The notes under the pieces were generated by a model. The model saw only the letters and a program-made list of their open reading frames with translations, did not search any database and was not told the origin of the DNA. The position numbers and the translations under genes are program-made. This document shows, piece by piece, positions 9,152 to 46,667 of a stretch of DNA of 64,000 nucleotides. Position 1 is the first letter of the stretch, and each line of letters starts with the position of its first letter. Source of the DNA: Rickettsiales bacterium (GTDB lineage Bacteria; Pseudomonadota; Alphaproteobacteria; Rickettsiales; SXRF01); NCBI GenBank assembly GCA_947459535.1, contig CANHDY010000001.1, positions 4,653 to 68,652 on the forward strand. The letters run 5' to 3'.

Positions 9152-9822
9152 CCATTCTCCTGCTCACCAAAAAAGACCGCTGGTCAGCCCACGCCGCAAG
9201 CCTCACGCAGGCCATGCTGCCATCGCCGGTATTGTGGCATCAGGGACAACCCTCAGATCCCGCGCCAGAGAGCTTTAACCTGCCATCGCTGAAGCTGGTT
9301 ATTTCATTTCTTTCGCCGTGGATTGTGCCTGCCAGCGTGCTTGAAAAAGCTGAGCTTGCCATCAATTTTCACCCGGGATCGTGTGATTACCCCGGCACTG
9401 GCTGCTACAATTTTGCGCTCTATGAAGGTGCTGAAAAGTTTGGCGCGGTGTGCCATCACATGCTGCCGCGTGTGGATACTGGCGCTGTGATTGCCGAAAC
9501 ATTGTTTCCGGTTTTCCCGCACGACACGGTGGAAACGCTCAAACTCAGAACCATGGTCACCATGCTGGAAATGCTGCATGTGCAGCTTGCGCGCTATGCC
9601 AGCGGCGAGCCATTTGCCCATCACCACCGGCAATGGACAAGACCCGCTTTCACACGACGCCAGCTCAACGCGCTGTGCGAAATAACAGAAAACATGCCGC
9701 CGCAGGAAAAGCAGCGCCGCATTCGCGCTACGACCTATCCCGGCTATCCCGGCCCCTACCTGCTCAAAGAAAATGGCGAAAAGATACCCTATCATGTGCC
9801 GCCTGGGCCGCCCCTTGCCTGA
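9148..9822 (+). CDS. formyltransferase-family protein
   Basis: 'INFHPGSCDYPG' and 'HHMLPRVDTGAVI' resemble the formyl_trans_N core. Confidence 0.55.
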   Translation: MTILLLTKKDRWSAHAASLTQAMLPSPVLWHQGQPSDPAPESFNLPSLKLVISFLSPWIVPASVLEKAELAINFHPGSCDYPGTGCYNFALYEGAEKFGAVCHHMLPRVDTGAVIAETLFPVFPHDTVETLKLRTMVTMLEMLHVQLARYASGEPFAHHHRQWTRPAFTRRQLNALCEITENMPPQEKQRRIRATTYPGYPGPYLLKENGEKIPYHVPPGPPLA

Positions 9823-15235: not shown

Positions 15236-15754
15236 ATGCCCTACCGCTTCACCCTTCTCTACCTGCTGCTTATTCCGCTGGTAAACTGGGCATTTTCCTG
15301 GACACCGCTCGTCGCGCTGCCGGACGGCGGCATGTGGTCGCCTTTTTCGATTGCAGTGGGGCTGATTCTGGTGGTGCGTGATTTCGCCCAGCGCGAGATC
15401 GGGCAGTATATCTTCATCCCGCTCATCATCGGGGTGGCGATCTCGTTTCTGATGGCGCCGCCGGAAATCGCCGCCGCTAGCGGCATTGCATTTTTCGTCA
15501 GCGAGCTGGTGGACTGGGCGCTTTACACCTTCACCAAAAAACCGCTTTCCACCCGTGTGATGATCTCCAGCCTCGCCAGCGCGCCGGTCGATAGCATCAT
15601 CTACTTATCTGGTGCAAATATGGCCATTCCCGGCCTCTTCAGCTGGTGGACACTGGGCACCATGATCATAAGCAAATTATTGGGCGCGTATGTAGTGTAT
15701 CGCATACTGAGGAAAAGAGAGCGCTCCTCGTCATTCCCCGAATTTCGCCAGTAG
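15236..15754 (+). CDS. VUT-family (YhhQ/DUF165-like) membrane protein
   Basis: Polytopic profile with 'VVRDFAQREIG' and 'APVDSIIY'. Start set at ATG 15236; the ORF-track N-terminus is a translated repeat. Confidence 0.6.
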   Translation: MPYRFTLLYLLLIPLVNWAFSWTPLVALPDGGMWSPFSIAVGLILVVRDFAQREIGQYIFIPLIIGVAISFLMAPPEIAAASGIAFFVSELVDWALYTFTKKPLSTRVMISSLASAPVDSIIYLSGANMAIPGLFSWWTLGTMIISKLLGAYVVYRILRKRERSSSFPEFRQ

Positions 15755-15770
15755 GTGAAATTATAGGGGA

Positions 15771-15879
15771 ATCCATCCAGAAATGTCAGCAGACATTTCT
15801 GGGACGCAAAAGGTCTACTGACCTTTTGCTATTCTGGATCCCGGATAAATTTTTTTACTAAAAAAATTTCCGGGATGAC
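15771..15879. repeat. composite GTCAT/ATCCAG...CTGGAT/ATGAC palindromic element (MITE-like) with two internal GTC..GAC hairpins
   Basis: atccatccag + hairpins at 15777-15802 and 15806-15829 + ctggatcccggataaattttttt..aaaaaaatttccgggatgac. Confidence 0.75.
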
Positions 15880-17659: not shown

Positions 17660-17689
17660 CTGGATTACTTCGCTTACGCTCGTAATGAC
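17660..17689. repeat. half element CTGGAT...AATGAC
   Basis: ctggattacttcgcttacgctcgtaatgac. Confidence 0.6.
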
Positions 17690-18924
17690 GATAGTATTTC
17701 CTTCACCAGCCTCTCAGCCACTTGGGTTTTACTCTTCTTCGGCCATGGGTGCTGGCCATCTTTGGAAATGAATATCACCCGATTGTCATCATCACCAAAC
17801 ACTTTACCGCCGGAAACATCGTTGGCAAGCACCCAATCAGCGCCCTTGGCGTGATATTTCTTAGCCGCATGGCTTGCAAGCTTCTCGGTTTCTGCCGCAA
17901 AACCAACCACCAGGCGCGGGCGCTTCGTTTTGTGCTGCGCCACGCTTTTTAAAATATCCGGGTTTTCCTCAAGCTCCAGCGCCGGTTTTTTCCCCGTCTG
18001 TTTTTTGATTTTCTGCGCGGCTGGTTTCACATGCCAGTCCCCCACTGCGGCGGCAAACACCGCCACATCCACCGGAAGCAGCCTGTGCACCGCCTCATGC
18101 ATCTCGCGCGCTGTGGTCACATGCACGACCGAAACACCCGCAGGATCAGCAAGCTGCGTCGGCCCCGAAACCAGCGTCACCTTCACACCCACCTTGGCAA
18201 GCGCCGCCGCAATCGCATGCCCCTGCTTGCCGCTGGAGCGATTGGCAATATAGCGCACCGGATCAATCGGTTCATGCGTCGGGCCAGAGGTGACGAGAGC
18301 GGTGATACTCTTTGACCCCCTCTCCCTTTCAGGGAGAGGGTTGGGGTGAGGGTTATGTCTTTTACCCCCCTCACCCTGCCCTCTCCCCGCAGGGGAGAGG
18401 GTTCTAAGCACCACTTCCACAATCTCCTGCGGCTCGGCCATACGCCCGGGGCCTTCTTCGCCGCAGGCCAGCATGCCGACACCCGGCTCGATCACTTCCG
18501 CGCCGTCAGCCTTGAGCTGCGCCACGTTGCGCTGCGTGGCGGGGTGGCGCCACATCTGCGTGTTCATCGCTGGTGCTACGAGCAGTTTTTTATTGTTAGC
18601 AAGCAGCGTGGCGGTTGCCATATCATCGGCAATCCCATGCACCATCTTGGCGATAATATCGGCAGTTGCAGGTGCCACGAGCAGCAAATCCGTTTCGCGT
18701 GAGAAACGAATATGCCACATGTCCTTCTTTTCCTTGGGCGAGAATAAATCCGTGGAAACGGGATTGCCCGAAAGCTTTTCCAGTTCTTTCACATTCACAA
18801 ATTCGCTGCCGCCGCGCGTGACAATGCAGTGCACACCAATCTTCTTTTGACGCAGCAGGCTAATAAGCGCCGGCGCCTTAATCGCCGCAATCGAACCGCT
18901 GATGATGAGGGTAATGGAGGGCAT
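17674..18924 (-). CDS. coaBC: bifunctional phosphopantothenoylcysteine decarboxylase/synthetase
   Basis: 'ISGSIAAIK', 'PAMN..M', 'VTSGPTHEPIDPVRYIANRSSGKQG'. Start set at 'MPSITLII'; upstream codons are a translated repeat. Confidence 0.9.
   Translation of the reverse strand: MPSITLIISGSIAAIKAPALISLLRQKKIGVHCIVTRGGSEFVNVKELEKLSGNPVSTDLFSPKEKKDMWHIRFSRETDLLLVAPATADIIAKMVHGIADDMATATLLANNKKLLVAPAMNTQMWRHPATQRNVAQLKADGAEVIEPGVGMLACGEEGPGRMAEPQEIVEVVLRTLSPAGRGQGEGGKRHNPHPNPLPERERGSKSITALVTSGPTHEPIDPVRYIANRSSGKQGHAIAAALAKVGVKVTLVSGPTQLADPAGVSVVHVTTAREMHEAVHRLLPVDVAVFAAAVGDWHVKPAAQKIKKQTGKKPALELEENPDILKSVAQHKTKRPRLVVGFAAETEKLASHAAKKYHAKGADWVLANDVSGGKVFGDDDNRVIFISKDGQHPWPKKSKTQVAERLVKEILSSLRA
18316..18403. 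repeat. G/C-rich tripartite palindromic element, family A (CCCTCTCCC..GGGAGAGGG / GGGGTGAGGG..CCCTCACCC / CCCTCTCCCC..GGGGAGAGGG)
   Basis: Three consecutive hairpins read directly. Lies inside coaBC. Confidence 0.85.
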
Positions 18925-18942
18925 AGCTACCACATTTAAAGT

Positions 18943-18970
18943 GTCATCCCGAGCTTGTCGAGGGATCTCA
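18943..18970. repeat. GTCATCCCGAGC-type half element
   Basis: gtcatcccgagcttgtcgagggatctca. Gives the spurious 'EIPRQARDDT' N-terminal extension of the coaBC ORF. Confidence 0.6.
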
Positions 18971-19009
18971 AGATCTTTCGACTTCCCCCGCAATAAATGC
19001 CGGGTTCGC

Positions 19010-21763
19010 TCAAGATGACAACTGTTTTAGTTTATACAGTATCTCCAGCGCTTCTTTTGGCGAGAGTGTATCGGGGTTGATGCTTTCTAACTCTGCCAAA
19101 ACCGTCTCTCCTTTTGCGGGAGGTGGCTGATTGGCGGGGGTAGAAGAATAGCTAAAGAGCGGCAAGCTCGCCGGCACCTCCTGCGAATGTTCTGCCTCAA
19201 GCTGGCGCAGAATCTCGCTGGCGCGGCTTATCACCGGCTCAGGCAGCCCCGCCAGCTTCGCCACGTGAATACCGTAGGAACGATCCGCCGTGCCGCTCGT
19301 CACCTCATGCAGAAACACCAGCTCGCCCTTCCATTCCTTCACTTTCATCGTGTAGCAGGCAAGCGCTGGCAGCGTGCCCGTCAGCTGGGTCAGCTCGTGG
19401 TAGTGGGTGGCAAAAAGTGCGCGCGCTTTGGTCACATGGTGCAGATGCTCCACCACCGCCCACGCGATGGAAAGACCATCAAACGTCGCGGTGCCACGCC
19501 CAATTTCATCAAGGATAATCAGCGAGCGCGAGGTGGCCTGATTCAAAATGGTGGCGGTTTCCACCATCTCCACCATGAAGGTGGATTGCCCGCGCGCCAA
19601 ATCATCCGCCGCGCCCACGCGTGAAAACAGCTTATCCACGATGCCAACACGCGCCGATTCCGCCGGCACAAAACCGCCCATCTGCGCCATGATGGCGATC
19701 AACGCATTCTGGCGCAGGAAGGTTGATTTACCGGCCATGTTCGGGCCGGTGAGCAACCACAAATGCTTATCGGGTGCAAGGCTGGTATCATTGCCGATGA
19801 AAGGTTGCTGGCTGGTTTTGGCCAGCGCCGCCTCCACCACCGGATGACGCCCCTTTCGAATCTCAAACTCCAGCGATCCGTTGATTTCCGGGCGAACATA
19901 ACGGCGTTTGGCGGCAAGCTCAGCCAACGCCGCCACCACATCAAGATGCGCCAGCGCACGTGCGGACGCCACCACGCGCGGCGCGGCGTCAAGCACCTCA
20001 GCGACCAGCTCCGCAAAAATCTCAAGCTCCAGTTTCAGCGCCTTATCACCCGCTTCGCTGATGCTGCGCTCCAGCTCAGAAAGCTCCACGGTGGTGTAGC
20101 GCAGATTATTCGCCAGCGTCTGGCGGTGGATAAAATCCTGCGTCACCTTACTCTGGTGCGCCTGCGTAATTTCAATGTAATAACCAAGAATGTTGTTATA
20201 GCGAATCTTCAGTGTATTGATGCCGGTGGCGTCAATGTAGCGCTGCTGCAGCGCCGCGATGCGCCGCGCGCCCTCATGCTTCAGCGAGCGCAGCTCGTCG
20301 AGCGCCGCATGGTAGCCGCTGGCGATAAAATCACCGTCGCGCGCAAACAGCCCCGCCTCCGGTTTGATCGCGGACTTAAGCCGCTGGATGAGTGTTTCAT
20401 GGCCGCCCAGCTCGCCGCGCTTCTGCGCCAGCTCCTCTGGTAGTGCTGACGAGTCCTGCAGCTCCAGTGCCATGCGAATCTGCTGCGCGGCGTCCAGCGC
20501 CTGAGCAATGGAGAGTAAATCCCTTGGCCCACCGCGCGCAAGCGACAGCCGTGCCAGTGCCCGCTCCATATCTGGCGCATTCTTGAGCTGTTCGCGCACG
20601 GCGCTGCGAAGGCTGGCTTCATCTTTAAACAGCATCACCTGCTCCTGCCGGCGAAGAATCGCCTGTGGGTCGGTCAGCGGCGCGCATAGCCAGCTGGCCA
20701 GCAGCCTTGCGCCGCTGGCGGTGACGGTCTCATCCATTACCCAAAACAGGCTACCCCGGCGCTCGGCGGATAAGGTCTGCATCAGCTCAAGGTTGCGCAG
20801 GCTCGCCGCATCAATCTGCATGTGGCTGGCTGGCAGCTGACGCGTGGGTGCATCCAGACGCGGCATCGCGGTTTTCTGCGTGAGGCGCACATAATCCAGC
20901 AGCACGCCACACGCCGCCAGCTCGCCCGGCATGAAATCCCCAAACACACTCAGCGTCGCCACGGCGTAATACTCGGTCATGATGCGCGTAGCGCGCGCCG
21001 GATCAAACAGATGGGCGGGCAGCCGCGTCAGCTGGCTCTGCCACATCGGCTGCCATGCACTTTGCTCGCCGTCTGCCAGCAGAATCTCGCGCGGGGCAAT
21101 GCGCGAAAGTTCGGCGGCGATCTGCTCCGGCGCCACCATCGCCACACGAAACTCACCGGTGGTGATGTCCAGCCAGGCAAGGCTTGCCGACGCCTGCCCG
21201 CGAGCTGGCGCCACCAACGCGCATAAATACTGCGAACTGCGGCCATCAAGCAGCGTGTCTTCAGTAATCGTTCCCGGCGTCACAATACGCACCACATCGC
21301 GCGCCACCACTGCTTTGTAACCGCGTTTTTTGGCTTCTTCCGGTGTTTCCAGCTGCTCGGCAATGGCCACGCGCAGCCCGGCGCGGATCAGCTTTTCAAG
21401 GTAAGTATCATAGGCATGCACCGGCACGCCGCACATCGGAATATCCTCGCCGGCATGCTTGCCACGCTTGGTCAGCGCAATATCCAGTACCTGCGACGCC
21501 ACCGCTGCATCCTCAAAAAACAGCTCGTAAAAATCGCCCATGCGATAAAACAGCAGACAGTCCGGATGCGCCGCCTTCAGCGCCAGATATTGCGCCATGG
21601 CGGGCGTCGTTTTTTCCTCCCCCCCTTGAGGGAGGAGGTTAGGAGGGGGGGTGACAACTGTTCTGCCTGAGCGTATGTCACCCCCCACCCCGCCCTCCCC
21701 CTCAAGGGGGGAGGGAGAAATATCTTCCAAAACAACTGCTTGTTTAGCCATACCCATTGTCAC
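19010..21763 (-). CDS. mutS: DNA mismatch repair protein MutS
   Basis: 'TPAMAQYL..K....[14 protein letters not shown]', 'GPNMAGKST', 'DEIGRGT'. The N-terminus contains a repeat element, so the start is uncertain. Confidence 0.92.
21616..21716. repeat. tripartite palindromic element, family B (C7/G7 type)
   Basis: cctcccccccttgagggaggagg / gggggggtgaca..tgtcacccccc / ccctccccctcaagggggggaggg. Lies inside the mutS 5' region. Confidence 0.85.
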
Positions 21764-25470: not shown

Positions 25471-25572
25471 ACCTGCGTCAAGCAACAAAGATTCTCGAAA
25501 GGCATGCAGCACATTTACCGCTGCCCCGGAAGAGGAAATATTTTCTCATCCCATTGATATAATGGATAAAAT

Positions 25573-25588
25573 TGTTTCACGTGAAACA
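25573..25588. repeat. palindrome TGTTTCACGTGAAACA (copy 1)
   Basis: Perfect 16-bp palindrome with a CACGTG core. Confidence 0.9.
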
Positions 25589-25605
25589 TTTTTCTTGCCC
25601 TCAAT

Positions 25606-25689
25606 CCCCTCTCCCCTCCGAGGAGAGGGTTAGGGTGAGGGGGACAGCGGTTTAGGCCTCTCCCTTCCAGGGAGAGGGTTAGCGGAGGG
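25606..25689. repeat. two family A elements in tandem
   Basis: cccctctcccctccgaggagagggttagggtgaggggg and cctctcccttccagggagagggttagcggaggg. Confidence 0.8.
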
Positions 25690-25698
25690 TTATCTCAA

Positions 25699-25718
25699 AT
25701 TGTTTCACGTGAAACAAT
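25699..25718. repeat. palindrome ATTGTTTCACGTGAAACAAT (copy 2)
   Basis: Perfect 20-bp palindrome. Shares AAATTGTTTCACGTGAAACA with copy 1. Confidence 0.9.
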
Positions 25719-25819
25719 TTTGACAGTGAATGTCACAAATCATCAATACAATTTCACCGACTTTTCACATTCCTTGCCATCGCAGCCTGCTATAATGGGC
25801 GGTATAAAGGAGATACCCC

Positions 25820-30718: not shown

Positions 30719-30784
30719 AATGACAGTATGGTGACACTTATAAGACAGGATAATGACAGTATGGTGACACTTATAAGACAGGAT
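30719..30784. repeat. perfect 2 x 33-bp tandem repeat
   Basis: aatgacagtatggtgacacttataagacaggat occurs twice. Lies in the AT-rich region upstream of the 463-aa orphan. Confidence 0.95.
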
Positions 30785-33478: not shown

Positions 33479-34924
33479 ATGAGTATGAATAGCACCACCC
33501 CGGAATCGCTTTTCTTTTCAGGAACCAGCCTCGACCAGGTTCGGGCGCAGCAGCTAGTCTCGTCCGCCCTTGACGGCATGGATGACGGCGAGCTGTTTTT
33601 GGAATACATCCAGTCGGAATCGCTGGCTTTTGATGATGGCCGCCTGAAAAATGCCAGCTTTAATACCGCGCAGGGCTTTGGGCTTCGCAGCGTACTCGGC
33701 GAGGCCACCGCCTATGCCCACGCCTCGGAAATCAGCGAAGCAGCGCTTGCCCGCGCTGCCCAGACCGTACGCGCCGTGAACCATGGCCAGAAACCCGTTC
33801 ATGCCAGCATGGCGCCCGCCTTTGGCACCAACCGCAAGCTCTACCGCGATATCAACCCGCTGAAGGAAGTGGCGTTTGAGGTGAAAGTAGCGCTGCTGCA
33901 GGAGATTGATGCTTACCTGCGCGGCAAGGATGCGCGTGTGAAGCAGGTTTCCGCCTCCATTTCGGGGCAGTGGCAGGCGGTGCATATTATGAAAGCAGAC
34001 GGCAGCGCCGCAAGCGACATCCGCCCGCTGGTGCGCGTGAATGTCAGCGTGATTGTCGAAGAACATGGCCGCCGCGAATCCGGCTCCAGCGGCGCGGGCG
34101 GCCGCGTGGCTTATGCACAATATATAGGCGAAGGCGGCTGGAAAAAGCTGGCGGATGAAGCGCTGCGGCAAGCGCTGGTGAACCTTGAGTCCATCCCCGC
34201 CCCGGCCGGCGAAATGCCGGTGGTGCTGGGGAATAGCTGGTGCGGCGTTTTGCTGCATGAAGCGATCGGCCACGGGCTGGAAGGTGATTTCAACCGCAAA
34301 GGAACCTCGGCATTTGCCGGGCTTATGGGCAAACAGGTCGCAAGTAAAGGCGTCACCATCGTCGATGATGGCACGATTGTTGATAAGCGCGGCTCGCTCT
34401 CGATTGATGATGAAGGCACCCCAACCTCACGGACCACGCTAATTGAGGATGGCATCCTTGTTGGCTATATTCAGGACAGGCTAAATGCCCGCCTGATGAA
34501 CATGCGCGCCACCGGCAATGGCCGCCGCGAAAGCTTCGCTCACCAGCCCATGCCGCGCATGACCAACACCTATATGTTAAATGGTGAAGGCACACGCGAA
34601 TCGATGATCGCCTCGGTGAAGCGCGGTATTTATGCGGCGCATTTTGGCGGCGGCCAGGTGGATATCACCTCCGGCAAATTCGTGTTTTCTGCTTCCGAAG
34701 CCTACCTGATTGAAAACGGCAAAATCACCGCGCCGCTGAAAGGCGCAACCCTGATTGGCAACGGCCCCGACTGTCTCACCAAAATTCGCGCCATCGGGAA
34801 TGACACGGCGCTGGATGATGGCGTCGGCACCTGCGGCAAAGCCGGCCAGTCTGTGCCCGTCGGCGTCGGCCAGCCCTCCCTTCTCATTGATGCAATGACG
34901 GTGGGTGGGACGGCTGTCGGATGA
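33479..34924 (+). CDS. tldD: metalloprotease TldD
   Basis: 'HEAIGHGLEGD', 'GNGRRESF', 'VGTCGKAGQ'. Confidence 0.92.
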   Translation: MSMNSTTPESLFFSGTSLDQVRAQQLVSSALDGMDDGELFLEYIQSESLAFDDGRLKNASFNTAQGFGLRSVLGEATAYAHASEISEAALARAAQTVRAVNHGQKPVHASMAPAFGTNRKLYRDINPLKEVAFEVKVALLQEIDAYLRGKDARVKQVSASISGQWQAVHIMKADGSAASDIRPLVRVNVSVIVEEHGRRESGSSGAGGRVAYAQYIGEGGWKKLADEALRQALVNLESIPAPAGEMPVVLGNSWCGVLLHEAIGHGLEGDFNRKGTSAFAGLMGKQVASKGVTIVDDGTIVDKRGSLSIDDEGTPTSRTTLIEDGILVGYIQDRLNARLMNMRATGNGRRESFAHQPMPRMTNTYMLNGEGTRESMIASVKRGIYAAHFGGGQVDITSGKFVFSASEAYLIENGKITAPLKGATLIGNGPDCLTKIRAIGNDTALDDGVGTCGKAGQSVPVGVGQPSLLIDAMTVGGTAVG

Positions 34925-35016
34925 CGGCTGACGGCTCACGAAAAAATCAGAAATTCATAGAAAACCTAGTCGATTCCGCCCATTTTCTTACTTGTCATCC
35001 GCCATCCGTCATCCGT
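34909..35016. repeat. CGGATGA/CGGCTGA heptamer arm (34909-34940) and TCATCCG arm (34993-35016), ~52-nt spacer
   Basis: Read directly. Arm 1 overlaps the last tldD codons and the stop codon. Confidence 0.8.
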
Positions 35017-35935: not shown

Positions 35936-36022
35936 CGGATGACGGATGACGGTTGTCGGATGACGAAGCATCTGCTTTAGTGTTTTTTGTCATCTGTCAT
36001 CCGTCATCTGTCATCCGCCACC
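35936..36022. repeat. CGGATGA heptamer arm, loop, GTCATCY heptamer arm
   Basis: cggatga cggatga cggttgt cggatga ... gtcatct gtcatcc gtcatct gtcatcc gccacc, then the lgt ATG. Confidence 0.9.
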
Positions 36023-36850
36023 ATGCTCACCTTCCCCAATATCGACCCCATCGCGCTTGAGCTAGGACCGCTTGCCATTCGCTGGTATTCGCTGGCTTAT
36101 ATTGCAGGGATATTGCTGGGCTGGTGGATTATCGTGCGCGAGCTGGCCGCCCGCCCGCTGGAAAACTTAAATAAAAAAGCCATCGATGACATGATCGTCT
36201 GGGCGATTATCGGCATCATGCTAGGCGGCAGGCTGGGCTACTGCCTGTTTTATAAACCATCTTACTACCTCGAAAATCCGCTGGAAATCCTTCAGCTCTG
36301 GCAGGGCGGCATGTCGTTCCATGGCGGCTTTGCCGGCTTTGTGCTCGCTTTTTATCTTTTCTGCCGCAAATACAACGTACGCTTCCTCGCGCTGATGGAT
36401 CTGATGGCCTGCGTCGCGCCGATTGGCATCGGGCTTGGCCGCCTCGCCAACTTCATCAATGGTGAACTTTATGGCCGCGTTACCGATTCACCGCTCGGCA
36501 TGATCTTCCCACACAGTGACGGCCAGCCGCGCCACCCCAGCCAGCTTTATGAGGCTTTTTCCGAAGGGCTGATTTTATTCATGATCATGATGTGCTTGCT
36601 GAAATTGTCCACACTCCGCGACCGCGCGGGAGCCTTGTCCGGCCTGTTTTGTATCGGTTACGGAACTGCCCGCATTATTTGTGAGTTTTTCCGCGAGCCG
36701 GATGCTTATCTGGGTTTCCTCTTTGCCGGTGCCACCATGGGGCAGCTGCTGAGTCTGCCGATGATTTTCATCGGTATATATCTGATATGGAAATCATCCC
36801 CCTCACCCGCCGCTTCGCGTCCTCCCTCTCCCCGTCGGGGAGAGGGTTAG
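36023..36850 (+). CDS. lgt: prolipoprotein diacylglyceryl transferase
   Basis: 'IRWYSLAYI' and 'GGMSFHGG'. The last ~17 codons and the stop codon lie inside a palindromic element. Confidence 0.9.
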   Translation: MLTFPNIDPIALELGPLAIRWYSLAYIAGILLGWWIIVRELAARPLENLNKKAIDDMIVWAIIGIMLGGRLGYCLFYKPSYYLENPLEILQLWQGGMSFHGGFAGFVLAFYLFCRKYNVRFLALMDLMACVAPIGIGLGRLANFINGELYGRVTDSPLGMIFPHSDGQPRHPSQLYEAFSEGLILFMIMMCLLKLSTLRDRAGALSGLFCIGYGTARIICEFFREPDAYLGFLFAGATMGQLLSLPMIFIGIYLIWKSSPSPAASRPPSPRRGEG

Positions 36851-36860
36851 GGTGAGGGGG
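36798..36860. repeat. family A element (nested hairpins)
   Basis: cccccctcaccc...ccctctccccgtcggggagagggttagggtgaggggg, spanning the lgt 3' end. Confidence 0.85.
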
Positions 36861-36865
36861 TAAAT

Positions 36866-37942
36866 ATGAACGATTTACTTTCCATCATCAAGGAACGCAT
36901 CGCTGAAAACGGGCCGATTCCGGTTTCGGAATATATGAGCCTGTGCCTTGCCCATCCTGAGCATGGCTATTACATGAAACGCGACCCGCTGGGCAAGGAT
37001 GGCGATTTTATTACGTCACCGGAAATCTCTCAGGTTTTTGGGGAATTGCTGGGTCTTTGGATCGCAAACCAGTGGGAAAAGCAAGGAAAGCCAAACGCCA
37101 CCCTGCTTGAAATGGGCCCCGGGCGCGGCACACTGATGAATGACGCCCTGCGCGCCACTAAAAAAATTAAGGGATTGCATGATGCGGTCTCGGTTCGTCT
37201 GCTGGAAATCAGCCCGGCGCTGAAGCAAAAACAATGGCAGCTGCTGGCGGGCAAGCACCATGATCTCGGCTGGCTGGAATCACTCGATTCACTGCCGCTA
37301 GAGCCCCTTTTTGTGGTGGCCAATGAGTTTTTTGACGCCCTGCCAATCAGGCAGTTTGTATGGCAAAATGAGAAGTGGCATGAGCGTTATGTTGGAATGG
37401 ACGGCGATCAACTTAAGTTCGTCATCGCGAGTGAGCGAAGCGAGCGTGGCGATCCAGACTGGATTGCTTCACCTTCGGCTCGCAATGACGGTGAGATTAA
37501 AGAAATTTGTGAACCAGCAACTGAAATCATTTCAAAGATCTCAAGCCATATTAAAACCTATGGCGGCGCGGCGCTCATCATTGATTACGGCTACAATGAA
37601 GGCAACGGCGACACGCTCCAGGCCATGCGTCGCCACCAGTATTTTGAAATATTTTCAAAGCCCGGTAGCGCCGACATCACCGCCCATGTCGATTTCGCCG
37701 CCCTCAAAGAAGCGGCAGAAAAAGCAGGCGCCAAAGTATTTGGCGCGACGCCGCAAGGGCGTTTCCTGATGAAGATCGGCGCCGGCCAGCGCACCCAGAA
37801 ACTCTGCGGAAGCGCCTCGCAGGAACAAAGCAGAGAGCTGATCTCGGGTCTCGATCGCCTCGCTTCCCCGGAAAAAATGGGCGAACTATTCAAAGTGCTG
37901 GCGATATTGCCGCCAGATGCCATGCATGCGGAGGGTTTTTAA
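36866..37942 (+). CDS. MidA/NDUFAF7-family SAM-dependent methyltransferase (DUF185)
   Basis: 'DFITSPEISQVFGEL', 'EMGPGRGTLM'. Carries a 69-bp palindromic element in frame. Confidence 0.8.
   Translation: MNDLLSIIKERIAENGPIPVSEYMSLCLAHPEHGYYMKRDPLGKDGDFITSPEISQVFGELLGLWIANQWEKQGKPNATLLEMGPGRGTLMNDALRATKKIKGLHDAVSVRLLEISPALKQKQWQLLAGKHHDLGWLESLDSLPLEPLFVVANEFFDALPIRQFVWQNEKWHERYVGMDGDQLKFVIASERSERGDPDWIASPSARNDGEIKEICEPATEIISKISSHIKTYGGAALIIDYGYNEGNGDTLQAMRRHQYFEIFSKPGSADITAHVDFAALKEAAEKAGAKVFGATPQGRFLMKIGAGQRTQKLCGSASQEQSRELISGLDRLASPEKMGELFKVLAILPPDAMHAEGF
37421..37489. repeat. compact composite element GTCATCGCGAG...ATCCAGaCTGGAT...CTCGCAATGAC
   Basis: 69 bp. Lies inside the midA-like CDS. 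Confidence 0.85.
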
Positions 37943-38781
37943 TGCTCTTTCCCCTCACCTCTTCCAATCTCGACTTACCACACATCCGCCACGGCTTTTT
38001 CAGCCGCAGTGGCGGCGTGAGTCAGGGTATCTACGCATCGCTGAACTGCGGCCCCGGCTCCGGCGATAATCTGGAACATGTGGGCAAAAACCGCCAGCGC
38101 GTAAGCAGCCACATGGGTGCACCGCTCATCACCTGCCATCAGGTTCACAGCAGCGAGGTGGTGACGGTTGAGATGCCATGGCAGCAAGGGCAGGCACCGC
38201 AGGCCGATGCGATGGTAACGAATCAGCCCGGCATCGCGCTGGGTATCCTGACGGCGGATTGCCTGCCGGTACTTTTTGCTGATCGCAGCCAGCGCATCAT
38301 CGGCGCGGCGCATGCCGGCTGGAAGGGTGCCTTCACCGGCGTACTGGAAAACACCATTGCCGCCATGAAAGCCCTTGGCGCCAGCGACATTGCCTGCGCC
38401 ATTGGCCCCGCCATTTCGCAGCCCTCTTATGAAGTCGGCCCGGAATTTTATGAGCGTTTCACGAAAATATACTCCCCCAGCTTGCGGGGGGAGATAGAGG
38501 GGGGTGATCATGCAACACTGCAAACTCACCCCCCCTACCCCCCCGCAAGCGGGGGGGTAATAAACAATGACCAATTCTTCATCCCCTCTTCCCGCGAAGG
38601 CCATCACCTCTTCGACCTCAAGGGCTATGCGCTGGCGCGGCTCAAAAATGCGGGCGTTGAGGCGGAACTTCTTGACCGCGATACCTGTTTTGAAGATGAT
38701 AGCTTCTTCAGCTTCCGCCGCGCCACCTTAATCGGCGAACGTGGCTATGGCAGGCAGGTTTCGGTAATATCATTAGTATAG
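37942..38781 (+). CDS. pgeF: peptidoglycan editing factor PgeF (YfiH/laccase-domain family)
   Basis: 'QVHSSEVV', 'ADAMVT', 'TADCLPV', 'HAGWKG'. Carries an ~87-bp element in frame. Confidence 0.85.
   Translation: MLFPLTSSNLDLPHIRHGFFSRSGGVSQGIYASLNCGPGSGDNLEHVGKNRQRVSSHMGAPLITCHQVHSSEVVTVEMPWQQGQAPQADAMVTNQPGIALGILTADCLPVLFADRSQRIIGAAHAGWKGAFTGVLENTIAAMKALGASDIACAIGPAISQPSYEVGPEFYERFTKIYSPSLRGEIEGGDHATLQTHPPYPPASGGVINNDQFFIPSSREGHHLFDLKGYALARLKNAGVEAELLDRDTCFEDDSFFSFRRATLIGERGYGRQVSVISLV
38472..38558. repeat. tripartite palindromic element, family B
   Basis: ctcccccagcttgcggggggag / ggggggtga..tcacccccc / acccccccgcaagcgggggggt. Lies inside pgeF. Confidence 0.85.
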
Positions 38782-38783
38782 CT

Positions 38784-38897
38784 GTCATCCCCGCGAAAGC
38801 GGAGATCCAGTTATAAACTTGACGAAAAATGTCTACTGACATTTTTCTTCTCTGGATCCCGGATAAATTTTTCTACTGAAAAATTTTCCGGGATGAC
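38784..38897. repeat. composite element with GTCTACTGAC hairpin
   Basis: gtcatccccgcgaaagcggagatccag + gaaaaatgtctactgacatttttc + ctggatcccggataaattttt..aaaattttccgggatgac. Confidence 0.85.
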
Positions 38898-38913
38898 AAC
38901 AAAGGATAATTCT

Positions 38914-39786
38914 ATGACTCTCATTCCCTTTGACGATCGTGATGGATGGATCTGGTTTAACGGCACGATGGTGCCGTGGCGCGATGCCAAGGTTCATGTG
39001 CTGACACATGGCCTGCATTATGGTTCCTGCGTGTTCGAAGGGGAGCGGGCGTATGGCGGCAAAATTTTCAAAAGCCGCGAGCATGCTGAGCGACTATATA
39101 AATCCGGTGAACTGCTTGGCTTCAAAATCCCCTTTGATGTTGAAACGCTGATGCAGGCGAAAGAAGAAGTGATTTCGAAAAATAATCTGGTGGATGCGTA
39201 CCTGCGCCCGGTGGCGTGGCGTGGCAGCGAAATGATGGCCGTTTCAGCGCAGCAGACAAAAATCCATGTCGCCATCGCCGCATGGCAGTGGCCGAGCTAT
39301 TTCGGCAAAGAAGCGAAAGAAAAAGGCCTGCGCCTGCAGGTAGCGCGCTGGGCACGCCCCGCGCCCAACACCGCCCCCACCGCCAGCAAAGCGGCCGGAC
39401 TTTACATGATCTGCACCATCAGCAAACACGAAGCCGAGGCCGCCGGCTACAATGATGCGCTGATGTATGATTATCGCGGCTTTGTTGCGGAAGCCACCGG
39501 CGCGAATGTGTTTTTCATGATGGACGGCAAGCTCCACACCCCGAAACCGGATTGCTTCCTGGACGGCATCACGCGCCGCACGGTGATCGATCTCGCGCGG
39601 CAGCATAAGATCGAGGTCGTTGAGCGCCATATCAAGCCGGACGAGCTGGCGCATGCGACCGAGGCCTTCCTCACCGGCAGCGCCGCCGAGGTCATGCCCA
39701 TTGGCAGCATCGAAGGGCAGCATTTCGTTGTCGGCGAGGCAACCAAGATGTTGATGGGGGCTTATCAGCAAGCTGTAAGCAATTAA
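38914..39786 (+). CDS. ilvE: branched-chain amino acid aminotransferase
   Basis: 'HGLHYGSCVFEGERAY'. AAGGA lies upstream of ATG 38914. The earlier ATG at 38893 lies in a repeat terminus. Confidence 0.9.
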   Translation: MTLIPFDDRDGWIWFNGTMVPWRDAKVHVLTHGLHYGSCVFEGERAYGGKIFKSREHAERLYKSGELLGFKIPFDVETLMQAKEEVISKNNLVDAYLRPVAWRGSEMMAVSAQQTKIHVAIAAWQWPSYFGKEAKEKGLRLQVARWARPAPNTAPTASKAAGLYMICTISKHEAEAAGYNDALMYDYRGFVAEATGANVFFMMDGKLHTPKPDCFLDGITRRTVIDLARQHKIEVVERHIKPDELAHATEAFLTGSAAEVMPIGSIEGQHFVVGEATKMLMGAYQQAVSN

Positions 39787-42144: not shown

Positions 42145-43024
42145 GGTTTGCCTTTAGTTCCTTCGCATACCTAGCCTCAACTGCGTATTTTAGCAACAAA
42201 GTGAGCACGGCCAGTAAGGTCAGCAGCGACGCGACCGCAAACGCCGCTACGAAATTATATTCATTATACAGAATCTCCACATGCAGCGGCACAGTGTTCG
42301 TCTGCCCCTTGATATGGCCGGAAACGACTGACACTGCGCCAAACTCGCCCATCGCCCGTGCATTGCACAGCAGTACGCCGGAGAGCAGCGCCCATTTGAT
42401 ATTGGGCAGCGTCACGCTGATGAAGGTACGAAAGCCCGATGCGCCAAGCAGAATCGCCGCTTCCTCTTCTTCGCTGCCCTGCTCTTCCATCAGCGGAATC
42501 AGCTCACGCGCCACAAACGGAAAGGTGACAAAGATGGTGGCAATCACCAGGCCGGGCACCGCAAAAATAATCTGGATATCGTGTGCAGCGAGCCACTCGC
42601 CCAGCGCCGAATGCGCGCCAAACAGCAGCACATAAATCAGGCCGGAAATCACCGGCGAGACGGAAAACGGCAAATCAATGAAGGTGATGAGCAGGCGCTT
42701 GCCGGCAAATTCATATTTGGCAATCGCCCAGGAGGCGCAGAGGCCAAACACCACATTAAACGGCACCGCAATCGCCGCCACCAGCAACGTGAGCTCGATG
42801 GCCGACAGCGCATGGCGGTGGGCAAGCGCATCTGCGTAAGCCTCCCAGCCCTTTGCAAACGCTTCTGCAAAAACCACCGCCAGCGGCAACGCCACCAGCG
42901 CCAGCATGAAGCCAAGCGCGACAGCAATGAGCACCAACTTCACCCACCATGGCTCTCCTAAAATCTCCCTCTCCCTTTTAGGGAGAGGGTTGGGGTGAGG
43001 GTTATCAGTCCAAATGACGCTCAT
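42134..43024 (-). CDS. cysW: sulfate ABC transporter permease CysW
   Basis: Permease EAA-type region '[15 protein letters not shown]'. The first ~20 codons lie in a repeat element, so the start is uncertain. Confidence 0.85.
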
Positions 43025-43062
43025 AAAACCCCCCTCCTAACCTCTCCCCTTAAGGGGGGAGG
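42967..43062. repeat. family A-like tripartite element at the cysT/cysW junction
   Basis: ccctctcccttttagggagagggttggggtgaggg ... cctctccccttaaggggggagg. Confidence 0.85.
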
Positions 43063-43876
43063 AATATCTGGATTGTAACCAGTTAATGAGTAGCAGCAAC
43101 GCGAATGATGCAAGCAGCATCACGCAGGCGATGGCGGTGGCGCCTGCCACATCATATTGCTCCAGCTTCACAACAATCAGAAGCGGCACAATTTCCGACA
43201 CGCCGGGAATATTGCCCGCGATAAAAATCACCGAGCCATATTCGCCGAGCGCGCGGGCAAAGGCCATGGCAAAGCCGGTCGCGAGCGCCGGTAGCACCGA
43301 AGGCAATAACACGCGCGTAAAAAGCTGCCAGCGCGAAGCGCCAAGGCTCACCGCCGCCTCTTCCACCTCGCGGTCAATGTCTTTTAAGACCGGCTCCACC
43401 GTGCGCACGACAAACGGCAGCCCGACAAATACCAGCGCTGCAAAAATCCCCAGCGGCGTGAACGCCACCTTGATGCCAAGCTCATTAAGCGGAGCGCCGA
43501 GCCAGCCGCTGGGGCCATAAAGCGTCGCCAGCGCGATGCCAGCCACCGCCGTCGGCAGGGCAAAGGGTAAATCCACCATCGCATCTAACATTTTGCGACC
43601 GGCAAAACGGTAGCGCACCAGCACCCACGCGAGAATCAGCCCGAAACATGCGTTCACCGCCGCCGCCGCCAGCGCAAGGCCAAAGCTTATTTTATAAGCA
43701 TGCACCACGCGATCAGAGGTCACGGCTTTCATGATCTCCGGCCAGCTGAGCGTGGCTGTTTTCACAAACAGTCCGGCCAGCGGAATCACCACCACCAGCA
43801 GCAGCGCCGCCAGCGTAAACGCCATGGTGATGCCAAAGCCCGGCAGAATGGAAGGTTGTTTGAGTTTCATATACAT
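43037..43876 (-). CDS. cysT: sulfate ABC transporter permease CysT
   Basis: 'EEAAVSLGASRWQLF'. The last 8 codons and the stop codon lie in a repeat element. Confidence 0.85.
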   Translation of the reverse strand: MYMKLKQPSILPGFGITMAFTLAALLLVVVIPLAGLFVKTATLSWPEIMKAVTSDRVVHAYKISFGLALAAAAVNACFGLILAWVLVRYRFAGRKMLDAMVDLPFALPTAVAGIALATLYGPSGWLGAPLNELGIKVAFTPLGIFAALVFVGLPFVVRTVEPVLKDIDREVEEAAVSLGASRWQLFTRVLLPSVLPALATGFAMAFARALGEYGSVIFIAGNIPGVSEIVPLLIVVKLEQYDVAGATAIACVMLLASFALLLLINWLQSRYSSPLKGRG

Positions 43877-43878
43877 AC

Positions 43879-43956
43879 GTCATGGCGAGCGTAGCGAAGC
43901 CATCCAGTTTGGCAAGTCTGGATTGCCGCGTCGGCCTTTGGCCTCCTCGCAATGAC
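43879..43956. repeat. compact composite element GTCATGGCGAG...ATCCAG..CTGGAT...CTCGCAATGAC
   Basis: Read directly. Lies between the cysT start and the recJ stop. Confidence 0.85.
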
Positions 43957-45817: not shown

Positions 45818-45844
45818 CAGGATCCCCGCTTTCGCGGGGATGAC
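45818..45844. repeat. half element CAGGATCCCCGCTTTCGCGGGGATGAC
   Basis: Read directly. Its ATGAC terminus supplies the first ATG of the O-methyltransferase ORF. Confidence 0.75.
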
Positions 45845-46502
45845 AAACGTGCCCCGCGAACATATCACCCCGAACATCGACTATATCCGCAAGCTCTACG
45901 CGCCGCAAGACAGCTTGCTAGCCAGCATTGCCGACACATTGAAAAAGCTGGATATCGCGTGGCAGGTAGGCCCCGAAGAGGGCAAGCTGCTGCAGCTGCT
46001 CATTCGCCTAAGCGGCGCGCGGCGCGTGGTGGAAATCGGCACGCTTGTTGGCTATTCCACGATCTGGATGGCGCGCGCCCTGCCAGATGGCGGCCAGATT
46101 TTCACCATCGGCAAAGACCCTGAGCATAATGCCATGGCGAAACATTTTTTTGACCAGTCCGATGTGGCTGAGCGCATCACCCTGCTCGAGGGCGACGCGC
46201 ACCTGATCCTGCCGGTGCTTTCCAAACAAGCGCCTTACGATATGGTGTTTATCGATGCCGATAAAATCAGCTATCCGGATTATCTGGATTGGGCAGAGGA
46301 AAATATCCGCCCCGGCGGGCTGATTGTGGCAGATAACACGCTGCTGTTTGATGCCGCTTCGCTGGATGCACCGCCGCCCGGCATTGCCCCCAAAACATGG
46401 CAGGCCATGCGCCGCTTTAACGAACGCTTAGCCGATAAAAATAAATTCTTCGGGCTGATTATTCCGACCGCGGAAGGAATGAGCGTGGCGGTGAAAATGT
46501 GA
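45840..46502 (+). CDS. class I O-methyltransferase (caffeoyl-CoA OMT/YrrM-like)
   Basis: 'VVEIGTLVGYSTIWMA', 'FIDADK'. The start ATG lies in the GGGATGAC repeat terminus, so the start is uncertain. Confidence 0.8.
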   Translation: MTNVPREHITPNIDYIRKLYAPQDSLLASIADTLKKLDIAWQVGPEEGKLLQLLIRLSGARRVVEIGTLVGYSTIWMARALPDGGQIFTIGKDPEHNAMAKHFFDQSDVAERITLLEGDAHLILPVLSKQAPYDMVFIDADKISYPDYLDWAEENIRPGGLIVADNTLLFDAASLDAPPPGIAPKTWQAMRRFNERLADKNKFFGLIIPTAEGMSVAVKM

Positions 46503-46504
46503 CT

Positions 46505-46667
46505 GTCATCCCGGAAAATTTTGCAGGAGCAAAATTTATCCGGGATCCAGTGAAGCAAAAAGTCAAAAGACTTTTTGTGTTTTACTATTTGACGACCAAA
46601 GTCTACTGACTTTGATCTTTTCTGGATCCCGTGCTCGCTACGCTACTGCTTCGCTCCACGGGATGAC
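46505..46667. repeat. composite element with two internal GTC..GAC hairpins
   Basis: gtcatcccggaaaatttt..aaaatttatccgggatccag + hairpins at 46555-46577 and 46597-46614 + ctggatcccgtgctcgc..gctccacgggatgac. Confidence 0.85.

Follow-up and report, generated by a model that had tools for sequence, protein, structure and literature searches.

The stretch analysed here (the window) consists of 64,000 nucleotides from a Rickettsiales bacterium (assembly GCA_947459535.1, contig CANHDY010000001.1, positions 4,653 to 68,652). Its forward strand carries pgeF, which encodes a 279-aa protein against 245-253 aa in the closest relatives. Inside the gene lies a G/C-rich palindromic element of about 87 nt (87-88), or 29 codons, and the open reading frame (ORF) translates through it as ...YSPSLRGEIEGGDHATLQTHPPYPPASGGV.... 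The parts of the locus are as follows.

37942..38781, + strand: host gene pgeF (YfiH/PgeF, Pfam PF02578), 279 aa, intact ORF
38472..38559, + strand: the element, two triplex-type units paired as an inverted dimer, mirror blocks inward, encoding SPSLRGEIEGGDHATLQTHPPYPPASGGV
38472..38507, + strand: left unit, 8/8 compatible triads in a triplex-motif scan
38472-38478: left unit, pyrimidine arm CTCCCCC
38479-38485: left unit, first loop with an inner GC/GC stem
38486-38493: left unit, purine arm GGGGGGAG
38494-38496: left unit, second loop ATA
38497-38504: left unit, mirror block GAGGGGGG, then TGA
38508..38525, + strand: variable centre of 18 nt (TCATGCAACACTGCAAAC) with its own small hairpin TGCA-ACAC-TGCA
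38526..38559, - strand: right unit CCCCCCC-gcttgc-GGGGGGG-ta-GGGGGGG-TGA, 7/7 compatible triads
38472-38493: sub-palindrome 1, CTCCCCC-agcttgcg-GGGGGAG
38499-38534: sub-palindrome 2, GGGGGGTGA-N18-TCACCCCCC
38537-38558: sub-palindrome 3, ACCCCCCCGC-aa-GCGGGGGGGT

A sequence-only reading of the window had described this element as three consecutive hairpins of about 87 bp, inserted in frame as one copy of a repeat family. The three sub-palindromes, the length and the 29 codons were all found as described. The minimum-energy fold, however, is one long imperfect hairpin over the whole element, not three hairpins; as RNA it reaches -73.1 kcal/mol (z = -10.5; 0 of 200 shuffles were as good) and as single-stranded DNA -38.9 kcal/mol (z = -8.7). 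Both descriptions follow because the element is a palindrome built of palindromes, and what had been taken for a central hairpin is the two mirror blocks facing each other. The whole element could extrude as one long hairpin or cruciform. For the pattern GGGGGGTGA-N5-30-TCACCCCCC the window has two matches, one in pgeF and one in mutS, where 0 are expected. No terminator-like site was found on the sense strand. At gathering thresholds no Rfam family, tRNA and rRNA included, was reached anywhere in the 64-kb window, and the permissive E-value mode, run on 38400-38950, returned only generic microRNA-precursor hairpins below threshold.

In each unit, about 35 nt long, a pyrimidine arm and a purine arm enclose the first loop, and after a second loop of 2-4 nt comes an exact mirror copy of the purine arm. 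This is the plan of the intrastrand-triplex repeats for which Holder et al. (2015, PMC4666352), who cite the earlier descriptions of BoxC and PIT, give the TM-ECO pattern 5'-CCCTCNCCC N3-6 GGGNGAGGG N3 GGGNGAGGG-3'. They report that the motif forms a class II purine intrastrand triplex in vitro (circular dichroism and nuclear magnetic resonance on oligonucleotides), that it occurs 3610 times in 262 proteobacterial genomes, that its 23 copies in E. coli K-12 are all intergenic and sometimes form inverted pairs, and that local hypervariability or instability accompanies it (PMC4666352). Their ITxF definition takes a pyrimidine arm, its Watson-Crick purine complement and an antiparallel mirror block with G*G-C and A/T*A-T triads, allowing stems of 6-15 nt with at most one mismatch and loops of 1-6 nt. 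Both pgeF units show these three blocks, the left with 8/8 triads (GGGGGGAG-ata-GAGGGGGG, on a Watson-Crick stem of 7 bp) and the right with 7/7. The second loops, of 3 nt (left) and 2 nt (right), lie within the loop limit; the first loop has 6 nt on the right, and on the left either 8 nt (with 7 perfect pairs) or 2 nt, TT, if the inner GC/GC pairs are counted with one A.G mismatch.

The stems of the pgeF units, CTCCCCC/GGGGGGAG/GAGGGGGG and C7/G7/G7, depart from the strict TM-ECO/BoxC pattern of CCCTCNCCC/GGGNGAGGG. Other window copies, which the sequence-only reading had set apart as family A (with the pgeF and mutS copies in family B), match that pattern letter for letter (18318, 18379, 36824, 42967 and others). 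Judged by its blocks, family B, with the pgeF copy, is a stem-sequence variant of the intrastrand-triplex repeat class and a potential triplex former; the B-type unit, written as an oligonucleotide, is CTCCCCCAGCTTGCGGGGGGAGATAGAGGGGGG. The likeness to BoxC/PIT/TM-ECO (PMC4666352) extends from the order of the parts (pyrimidine arm, loop of 3-6 nt, purine arm, loop of about 3 nt, mirrored block) to the G/C-rich composition, to a TTA or TTG second loop in many copies, to the occurrence both as single units and as inverted pairs, and to hypervariability of the loci among close relatives, with partial deletions after which a hairpin is left. Besides its stems, the pgeF copy differs in lying in frame within a conserved gene (all 23 copies of E. 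coli K-12 are intergenic), and the window holds about 1 unit per 5 kb against about 1 TM-ECO motif per 200 kb in E. coli K-12.

An ITxF-like scan of the window gave 11 matches, against 0.03 in Markov simulations; in all the window holds 12-13 units at 7 loci. Across 121 kb unselected for the motif, almost all hairpins with G/C-rich pyrimidine and purine arms are accompanied on one side by a mirrored third block. These 121 kb contain 32 units of at least nine stem types, in which each A of the purine arm has an A or a T as its mirror partner. The A positions differ among the nine or more purine arms and are mirrored nevertheless; the third block therefore covaries and is not a mere run of G. 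A permutation test that paired purine arms with the third blocks of other units did not discriminate, all arms being G-rich, and the stem types were tabulated instead. Such three-way covariation is comparative evidence that triplex-forming potential, or a recogniser of the mirror repeat, is preserved by selection or by copying. It also bears on the earlier suggestion that structure and not sequence defines these elements: across stem types the three blocks vary in concert, yet within a type the sequence is strongly conserved too (about 90% identity at the ends).

The host gene is readily recognised. Homologues of the window PgeF contain PF02578, the catalytic residues H69, C107 and H124 (His, Cys, His) are invariant across a 20-sequence PgeF alignment, and Foldseek matches the predicted structure best to 1xfj from Caulobacter (template modelling score, TM, 0.87) and then to E. 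coli YfiH structures (TM 0.83-0.87 over 1xfj, 1z9t and 7w1g). Residues 175-209 of the query (n=35) correspond to residues 184-189 of the 1xfj chain (n=6), a surplus of 29. In the alignment of 20 PgeF sequences the added stretch separates the conserved EVGPEFYERF helix from the FFIPS strand and is missing in all but one of the other proteins (18 of 19, P0003-P0007 and P0009-P0011 among them); the exception, P0008, is taken up below. In the AlphaFold model (predicted TM score, pTM, 0.79) the predicted local distance difference test score (pLDDT) is below 50 at residues 178-206, between helix 167-175 and helix 209-212. The 29 added residues, rich in Gly, Pro and Ser, thus model as a disordered surface loop.

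The closest orthologue, P0002, with 94% identity over aligned columns, is also without the element. It comes from a sister genome, the metagenome-assembled genome (MAG) GCA_033763775.1 (locus L001), of which 20.8 kb were examined and which is syntenic with the window over about 19 kb at 90-95% identity. Both flanks of the element are 93-95% identical in nucleotides, and where the window has the element the sister pgeF has a short NNQQPTTNN loop. Six further close orthologues have an intact gene in the same gene order and no element. This shows that the element entered or arose in pgeF in the window lineage, after the split from the sister genome. Outside the loop, pgeF compared with the sister genome has a nonsynonymous to synonymous rate ratio (dN/dS) of 0.12 at a dS of 0.147 and is still under purifying selection. 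The gene has stayed open and constrained because the element is 3n long, reads in a stop-free frame (3 of its 6 frames are without stop) and sits in a short connecting loop. A surface loop easily accommodates a 3n insertion, and selection need only purge the incompatible cases. We infer that the insert is a tolerated passenger and not an adaptation of the PgeF enzyme. A PgeF homologue, P0030, has an unrelated insertion of 18 residues (GSTRGSINNKMDPPIKSE) in a different loop (alignment columns about 259-276); it resembles the translation of a repeat from another family, a hint that PgeF loops tolerate such inserts repeatedly.

Taken as a whole, the pgeF insert is in our judgement likely to be a dispersed-repeat element, an inverted pair of BoxC/PIT/TM-class units that is foreign to PgeF and tolerated as a passenger, and probably a miniature of a longer cassette containing a DUF559 gene. 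Such a cassette is found in L151 (metagenome contig JADMIO010841905.1, about 370-850), where a complete DUF559 domain lies amid DNA polymerase III chi (holC; DNA_pol3_chi was matched in two stretches). The element there, 476 bp long and in frame, consists of a B unit, the DUF559 (Vsr-like) domain (PF04480, E = 1.5e-36) and an inverted unit. Its position is intein-like; it has no splicing domain and is translated as part of HolC. Its ends agree with those of the pgeF element at 41 of 52 positions on each side, and at about 90% across the core. The centre, 18 nt in pgeF, is 336 nt in L151, including the DUF559 ORF, and in the related elements of L002 and L193 it differs in length and sequence. 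Given the shared ends, the pgeF copy may be an ORF-less miniature.

Six further DUF559 genes, from Hyphobacterium, Undibacterium and four others, were sampled solely for their long contigs. A unit abuts or overlaps the start codon, or lies at most 70 nt upstream, in all six, and an inverted unit lies at or overlaps the stop codon in five of them; L244 has at most a degenerate trace. In L246 and L247 the inverted repeats are about 55 nt long, running past the triplex unit up to the ORF. Unit-encoded peptides were seen at the termini of about 15 of 24 DUF559 proteins, 19 of these 24 having been picked for extra length. Upstream of its DUF559 gene, L244 also has, at 782-1453, an array in which at least six triplex units alternate between forward and inverted orientation and recur roughly every 230-280 nt.

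E. coli K-12 has a comparable arrangement in the region of ycjD (DUF559) and fabI (L245, NC_000913.3 1351040-1351830), fabI (envM) being what we take to be the site where BoxC was first noted. The ycjD stop codon falls within a degenerate unit; between ycjD and fabI there is also a duplicated remnant of the 3' end of ycjD, and TM-ECO no. 9 (Table 1, PMC4666352) follows 165 nt downstream, beside fabI. The Vsr/DUF559 clade includes a known homing endonuclease, I-Bth0305I (PMC3424549), and a fusion of DUF559 to a SPOUT methyltransferase is described from Bradyrhizobium (PMC1829167). A literature search found no published link of DUF559 with triplex-type repeats.

We infer that a DUF559-cassette miniature is the most likely origin of the pgeF copy, with mobilisation by DUF559 as a putative step. 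The pgeF element would be an ORF-less miniature, like a miniature inverted-repeat transposable element (MITE), of a cassette of about 0.45-0.5 kb in which two inverted units enclose a DUF559 gene. The Vsr-like PD-(D/E)XK endonuclease of such a cassette would supply a DNA break, and repair of the break, or template copying, would then spread the unit ends. Occupation of the same pgeF site in two 64%-identical orthologues could reflect a homing-like site preference. Extended to the class, the proposal is a tentative one, to which we give slightly less than even chances: BoxC/PIT repeats may be the terminal inverted repeats of selfish DUF559 cassettes of about 0.45-0.5 kb, widespread and unrecognised, that have no other gene and in which the start and stop codons of DUF559 lie within the repeats, short dimers may be their miniatures, and both may lodge in frame in essential genes.

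With MITEs and their parents (PMC10969869) the pgeF element shares its short, ORF-less form, ends that match those of a longer enzyme-bearing element (L151) and the in-frame fusion with a host ORF, which is known for MITEs. It differs in having no target-site duplication; moreover, the L151 'parent' encodes a PD-(D/E)XK Vsr-like endonuclease and not a DDE or Y1 transposase, comes from another organism and is of putative autonomy. Homing endonucleases of the Vsr/DUF559 clade (I-Bth0305I; PMC3424549) belong to the same superfamily, and likewise are small selfish genes that can sit inside conserved host genes and occupy the same site in divergent orthologues (pgeF, in the window and L002). Unlike these, the cassettes involve no intron or intein, and their insertion sites are very diverse, with no defined recognition site.

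Several observations weigh against the origin proposed here, or against the passenger status of the insert. A tblastn search of the 64-kb window and of the 20.8 kb from the sister genome found no DUF559 gene; over the window and L001-L241 together it returned only L151 and an unlinked gene in L016. The identity among DUF559 proteins follows unit type only weakly (54-55% within and 43-51% between types, 8 sequences). No direct repeat that could be a target-site duplication flanks the pgeF, mutS, L151, L193 or L242-L248 copies. The codons beside the insert have also changed relative to the sister genome (KIY/INN against NNQQPTTNN), so the site is not a clean cut-and-paste footprint. In the work of Holder et al. 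triplex formation was seen with single-stranded oligonucleotides only and not in vivo, and TM-ECO motifs were described as having no link to mobile elements (PMC4666352). A related element stands at the identical codon position in the 64%-identical orthologue P0008 (locus L002), which a model of random passengers does not predict. Common descent of the two pgeF inserts is not required for this, because the elements in rsmE (L193) and holC (L151) are as close to the pgeF element as the L002 copy is, or closer. Finally, insertion of the endonuclease gene into pre-existing dimers could explain the association with DUF559 equally well.

This last point leads to the alternative that fares best, which we hold to be unlikely, at about one chance in four: the dimers would spread by some other route, such as replication slippage, template switching or recombination at non-B DNA, and would serve as landing pads for homing DUF559 genes, the pgeF copy never having been part of a cassette. 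Units and dimers that have no ORF seem to be far more numerous than DUF559 genes (E. coli K-12 has 23 TM-ECO motifs and one DUF559 gene that was looked at, ycjD; the window has its 12-13 units and none), the dimer centres are unrelated in sequence, hairpin modules are gained and lost as blocks between the sister genomes, and REPs (repetitive extragenic palindromic sequences) are known targets of insertion sequences, to judge from the reference list of PMC3733652. Yet a DUF559 gene whose start codon lies in or against the mirror block and whose stop lies inside the inverted unit looks like part of an integrated module, and the inverted repeats of L246 and L247 continue for about 55 nt, beyond the unit, as far as the ORF.

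Rather improbable, in our view, is a second alternative, in which the pgeF element is a REP/REPIN head-to-head doublet that a REP-associated tyrosine transposase (RAYT) copies by way of single-stranded hairpins. Intragenic palindromic dimers that code for 20-30 residues, often in repair genes, are known both for GTAG/CGTC REPs and for Rickettsia palindromic elements (RPEs) (PMC3733652, PMC10969869). Like the intragenic GTAG/CGTC dimers of Di Nocera et al. (2013, PMC3733652), the units here are joined head to head and add 20-30 residues to genes, with a preference in that system for DNA-repair genes (here mutS); they fold separately or as a single large stem-loop, as homo- or heterodimers, and singletons coexist with dimers. 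The missing target-site duplication is also as expected for Y1 transposases. Set against this, the pgeF-type units have no conserved GTAG/CGTC tag: the tetranucleotide varies (ATAG, TTAG, TCAG, CCAG, AAAG and others) and stands between purine arm and mirror block, 3' of the hairpin and not 5'. The conserved mirror block, an extra purine block, has no counterpart in REPs, and the gene that recurs between the units is DUF559 and not a Y1 transposase (RAYT was not searched for in the window). Membership of the GTAG/CGTC REPs was rejected, the tag being absent.

A third reading, which we regard as very improbable, makes the segment a lineage-specific functional addition to PgeF, or a selected RNA or DNA structure with a regulatory role (pause site, mRNA stabiliser or attenuator). 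It would account for the related element at the same codon in P0008, for the great stability of the hairpin and for arms that are better conserved than the surrounding pgeF (window against L002). It fits poorly with the intact, element-free genes of the sister genome and the six close orthologues, with the presence of such elements in intergenic DNA and in genes unrelated to pgeF, and with a likeness to the rsmE and holC elements of other organisms as great as that to the L002 pgeF element; the peptide is predicted to be disordered, and the Rfam and sense-strand terminator searches described above gave no match. An artefact of assembly or binning (a chimeric join, or a repeat wrongly assembled, in what appears to be a MAG; repeats are classic sites of mis-assembly) is scarcely credible, as the frame is kept exactly between gene flanks of 93-95% identity, the identical 279-aa protein is recorded from two contigs, an independent assembly (Logan SRR22250830) has a related element at the same pgeF site, and the element is shorter than a sequencing read.

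The passenger reading also invites comparison with the RPEs (PMC10969869, PMC3733652), which are likewise in-frame palindromic repeats in unrelated housekeeping genes of an alphaproteobacterium, with an added peptide compatible with the host fold and insertions polymorphic between relatives. RPE-1, however, is about 150 bp long and A/T-rich and codes for a conserved peptide, while RPE-4 and RPE-6 are CGTC-tagged REPs; the RPEs appear to share neither sequence similarity nor a mirror block with the pgeF element, and the host of the window, at about 55% G+C and flagellated, is not Rickettsia. Membership of the pgeF element in RPE-1 to RPE-10 is implausible on base composition and length, and the likeness is functional only.

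What had been read as families A and B of three-hairpin elements can thus be re-identified as intrastrand-triplex (BoxC/PIT) repeats, a class known for decades. For BoxC/PIT/triplex-motif repeats we know of no origin or means of spread put forward since BoxC was noted in the 1990s. Their in-frame, high-density occurrence in housekeeping genes (pgeF, mutS and coaBC, and a methyltransferase gene in the sister genome) is unreported for the class; earlier records of such behaviour come mainly from Rickettsia RPEs and tagged REPs. The bracketing of DUF559 genes supplies a testable candidate enzyme for triplex repeats, including those of E. coli K-12 (ycjD next to the fabI/envM BoxC); we regard this association as the most novel outcome. 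In annotation, such inserts can be expected to inflate conserved proteins by about 30 disordered residues and to yield spurious small ORFs.

Three of the seven loci in the window are within conserved genes (coaBC, the mutS 5' end and pgeF); the others are at the lgt 3' end, at a permease-gene junction and in two intergenic positions. The six loci other than pgeF, and a further in-frame repeat in the gene upstream of pgeF, are:

18318..18401, - strand: A+A dimer with the literal TM-ECO pattern, in frame in coaBC/dfp (17674..18993, - strand), translated, 27 residues
21615..21717, - strand: B+B dimer at the 5' end of the mutS ORF (19010..21763, - strand), translated, 37 residues
24915..24948, + strand: single A unit directly after the stop of a malic-enzyme ORF
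25607..25690, + strand: intergenic A unit, then a degenerate second unit
36797..36859, + strand: A unit and a remnant (CCCCCTCACCC) of its inverted partner, overlapping the lgt 3' end
42967..43075: A(+)/B(-) heterodimer where two ABC-permease ORFs meet; orthologous pair at L001 15090/15164
about 37420-37492: in-frame palindromic repeat GTCATCGCGAGTGAGCGAAGCGAGCGTGGCGATCC...CTCGCAATGACGG, read as ASERSERGDPDWIASPSARNDG, in the Methyltransf_28 (DUF185/NDUFAF7-like) gene, ORF 36866..37942

The sequence-only reading had been right that the mutS copy and family A share the architecture of the pgeF copy; what they share is two inverted triplex-type units and not three hairpins. A and B are not separate elements, because A and B units pair with each other as heterodimers (42967-43075 in the window; 9402/9528 and 15090/15164 in L001). 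Units also occur singly. Whole elements have been gained or lost between the window and L001, and at the lgt end the hairpin module 36826-36845 is missing in L001, where a simpler hairpin is left, a partial deletion of the kind that Holder et al. (PMC4666352) call the 'palindrome effect'. Presence and absence in the sister genome and such partial deletions match the instability published for triplex motifs and so support membership in the class. At the same place in the Methyltransf_28 gene L001 has, at 9397-9552, an A unit and an inverted B unit on either side of about 80 nt of host codons, which are unusually diverged in a protein otherwise more than 92% identical.

Beyond this lineage, a scan of metagenome contigs with the purine half of the B unit (query GGGGAGNNAGAGGGGGGTGA) gave 107 unique matches, 25 of which have a complementary CTCCCC arm upstream, against about 0.5 expected; among these CTCCCC-bearing matches the inner stems covary. 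About three quarters of the GGGGAGNNAGAGGGGGGTGA matches are G/A-rich low-complexity noise, much of it probably eukaryotic. In-frame copies in bona fide genes elsewhere were seen in rsmE, two radical-SAM genes and a DUF5131 gene; the rsmE copy (L193) is a dimer with the peptide SSPRLRGEKEGGDHYPHPASPTSPASGGG. The ends of the pgeF element are about 90% identical to those of elements in unrelated genes of other bacteria (L151 holC and L193 rsmE). A scan of genome contigs for GGGGGGTGA-N5-35-TCACCCCCC gave at least 119 loci; among the matches listed, most are ordinary terminator-like hairpins, and the full architecture is present also in Rhodoplanes (L010) and in L100. The same GGGGGGTGA/TCACCCCCC core, with other outer arms, is found in multi-copy palindromes of about 130 nt (ccgagaggcccctggacccc...GGGGGGTGAGGAG...CTCCTCACCCCCC...ggggtccaggggcctctcgg) in three alphaproteobacterial MAGs (loci L008, L012, L013, L015, L025, L030, L041, L052, L069, L078 and others).

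At 38785-38900, 15731-15840, 46541-46631, 45819-45847 and 43872-43953 the window has repeats of other palindromic families, of which there are no fewer than two; one has the form GTCATCCCCGCGAAAGCGG...GGATCC and the other GTCATGGCGAGCG...CTCGCAATGAC, and they are perhaps relatives of CGTC-tagged REPs. Several differ in presence or absence from L001, where 43872-43953, for example, is missing; conversely, L001 14165-14263 is missing in the window. In ORF translations these families leave such peptides as IPAFAGMT and EIPRQARDD. The triplex-unit locus 25607-25690 is bracketed by a 25-nt inverted repeat (AAAATTGTTTCACGTGAAACATTTT; 25568-25592 and 25697-25721, 96% complementary), each arm of which is palindromic around CACGTG and may be a regulator binding site or another repeat. 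Intergenic GATGACGG/CCGTCATC heptamer-like runs with inverted repeats, at 34918-35015 and 35938-36008, vary in length against L001, and 30719-30751 is a perfect 33-nt tandem duplication (AATGACAGTATGGTGACACTTATAAGACAGGAT) relative to L001. Read by eye and not by domain search, window ORF translations resemble flagellar hook or filament-associated proteins and enzymes of nonulosonic-acid synthesis, and Pfam identifies cytochrome oxidase genes in the syntenic stretch of L001. These genes suggest that the host, at about 55% G+C, is a motile, respiring alphaproteobacterium and not like a reduced endosymbiont.

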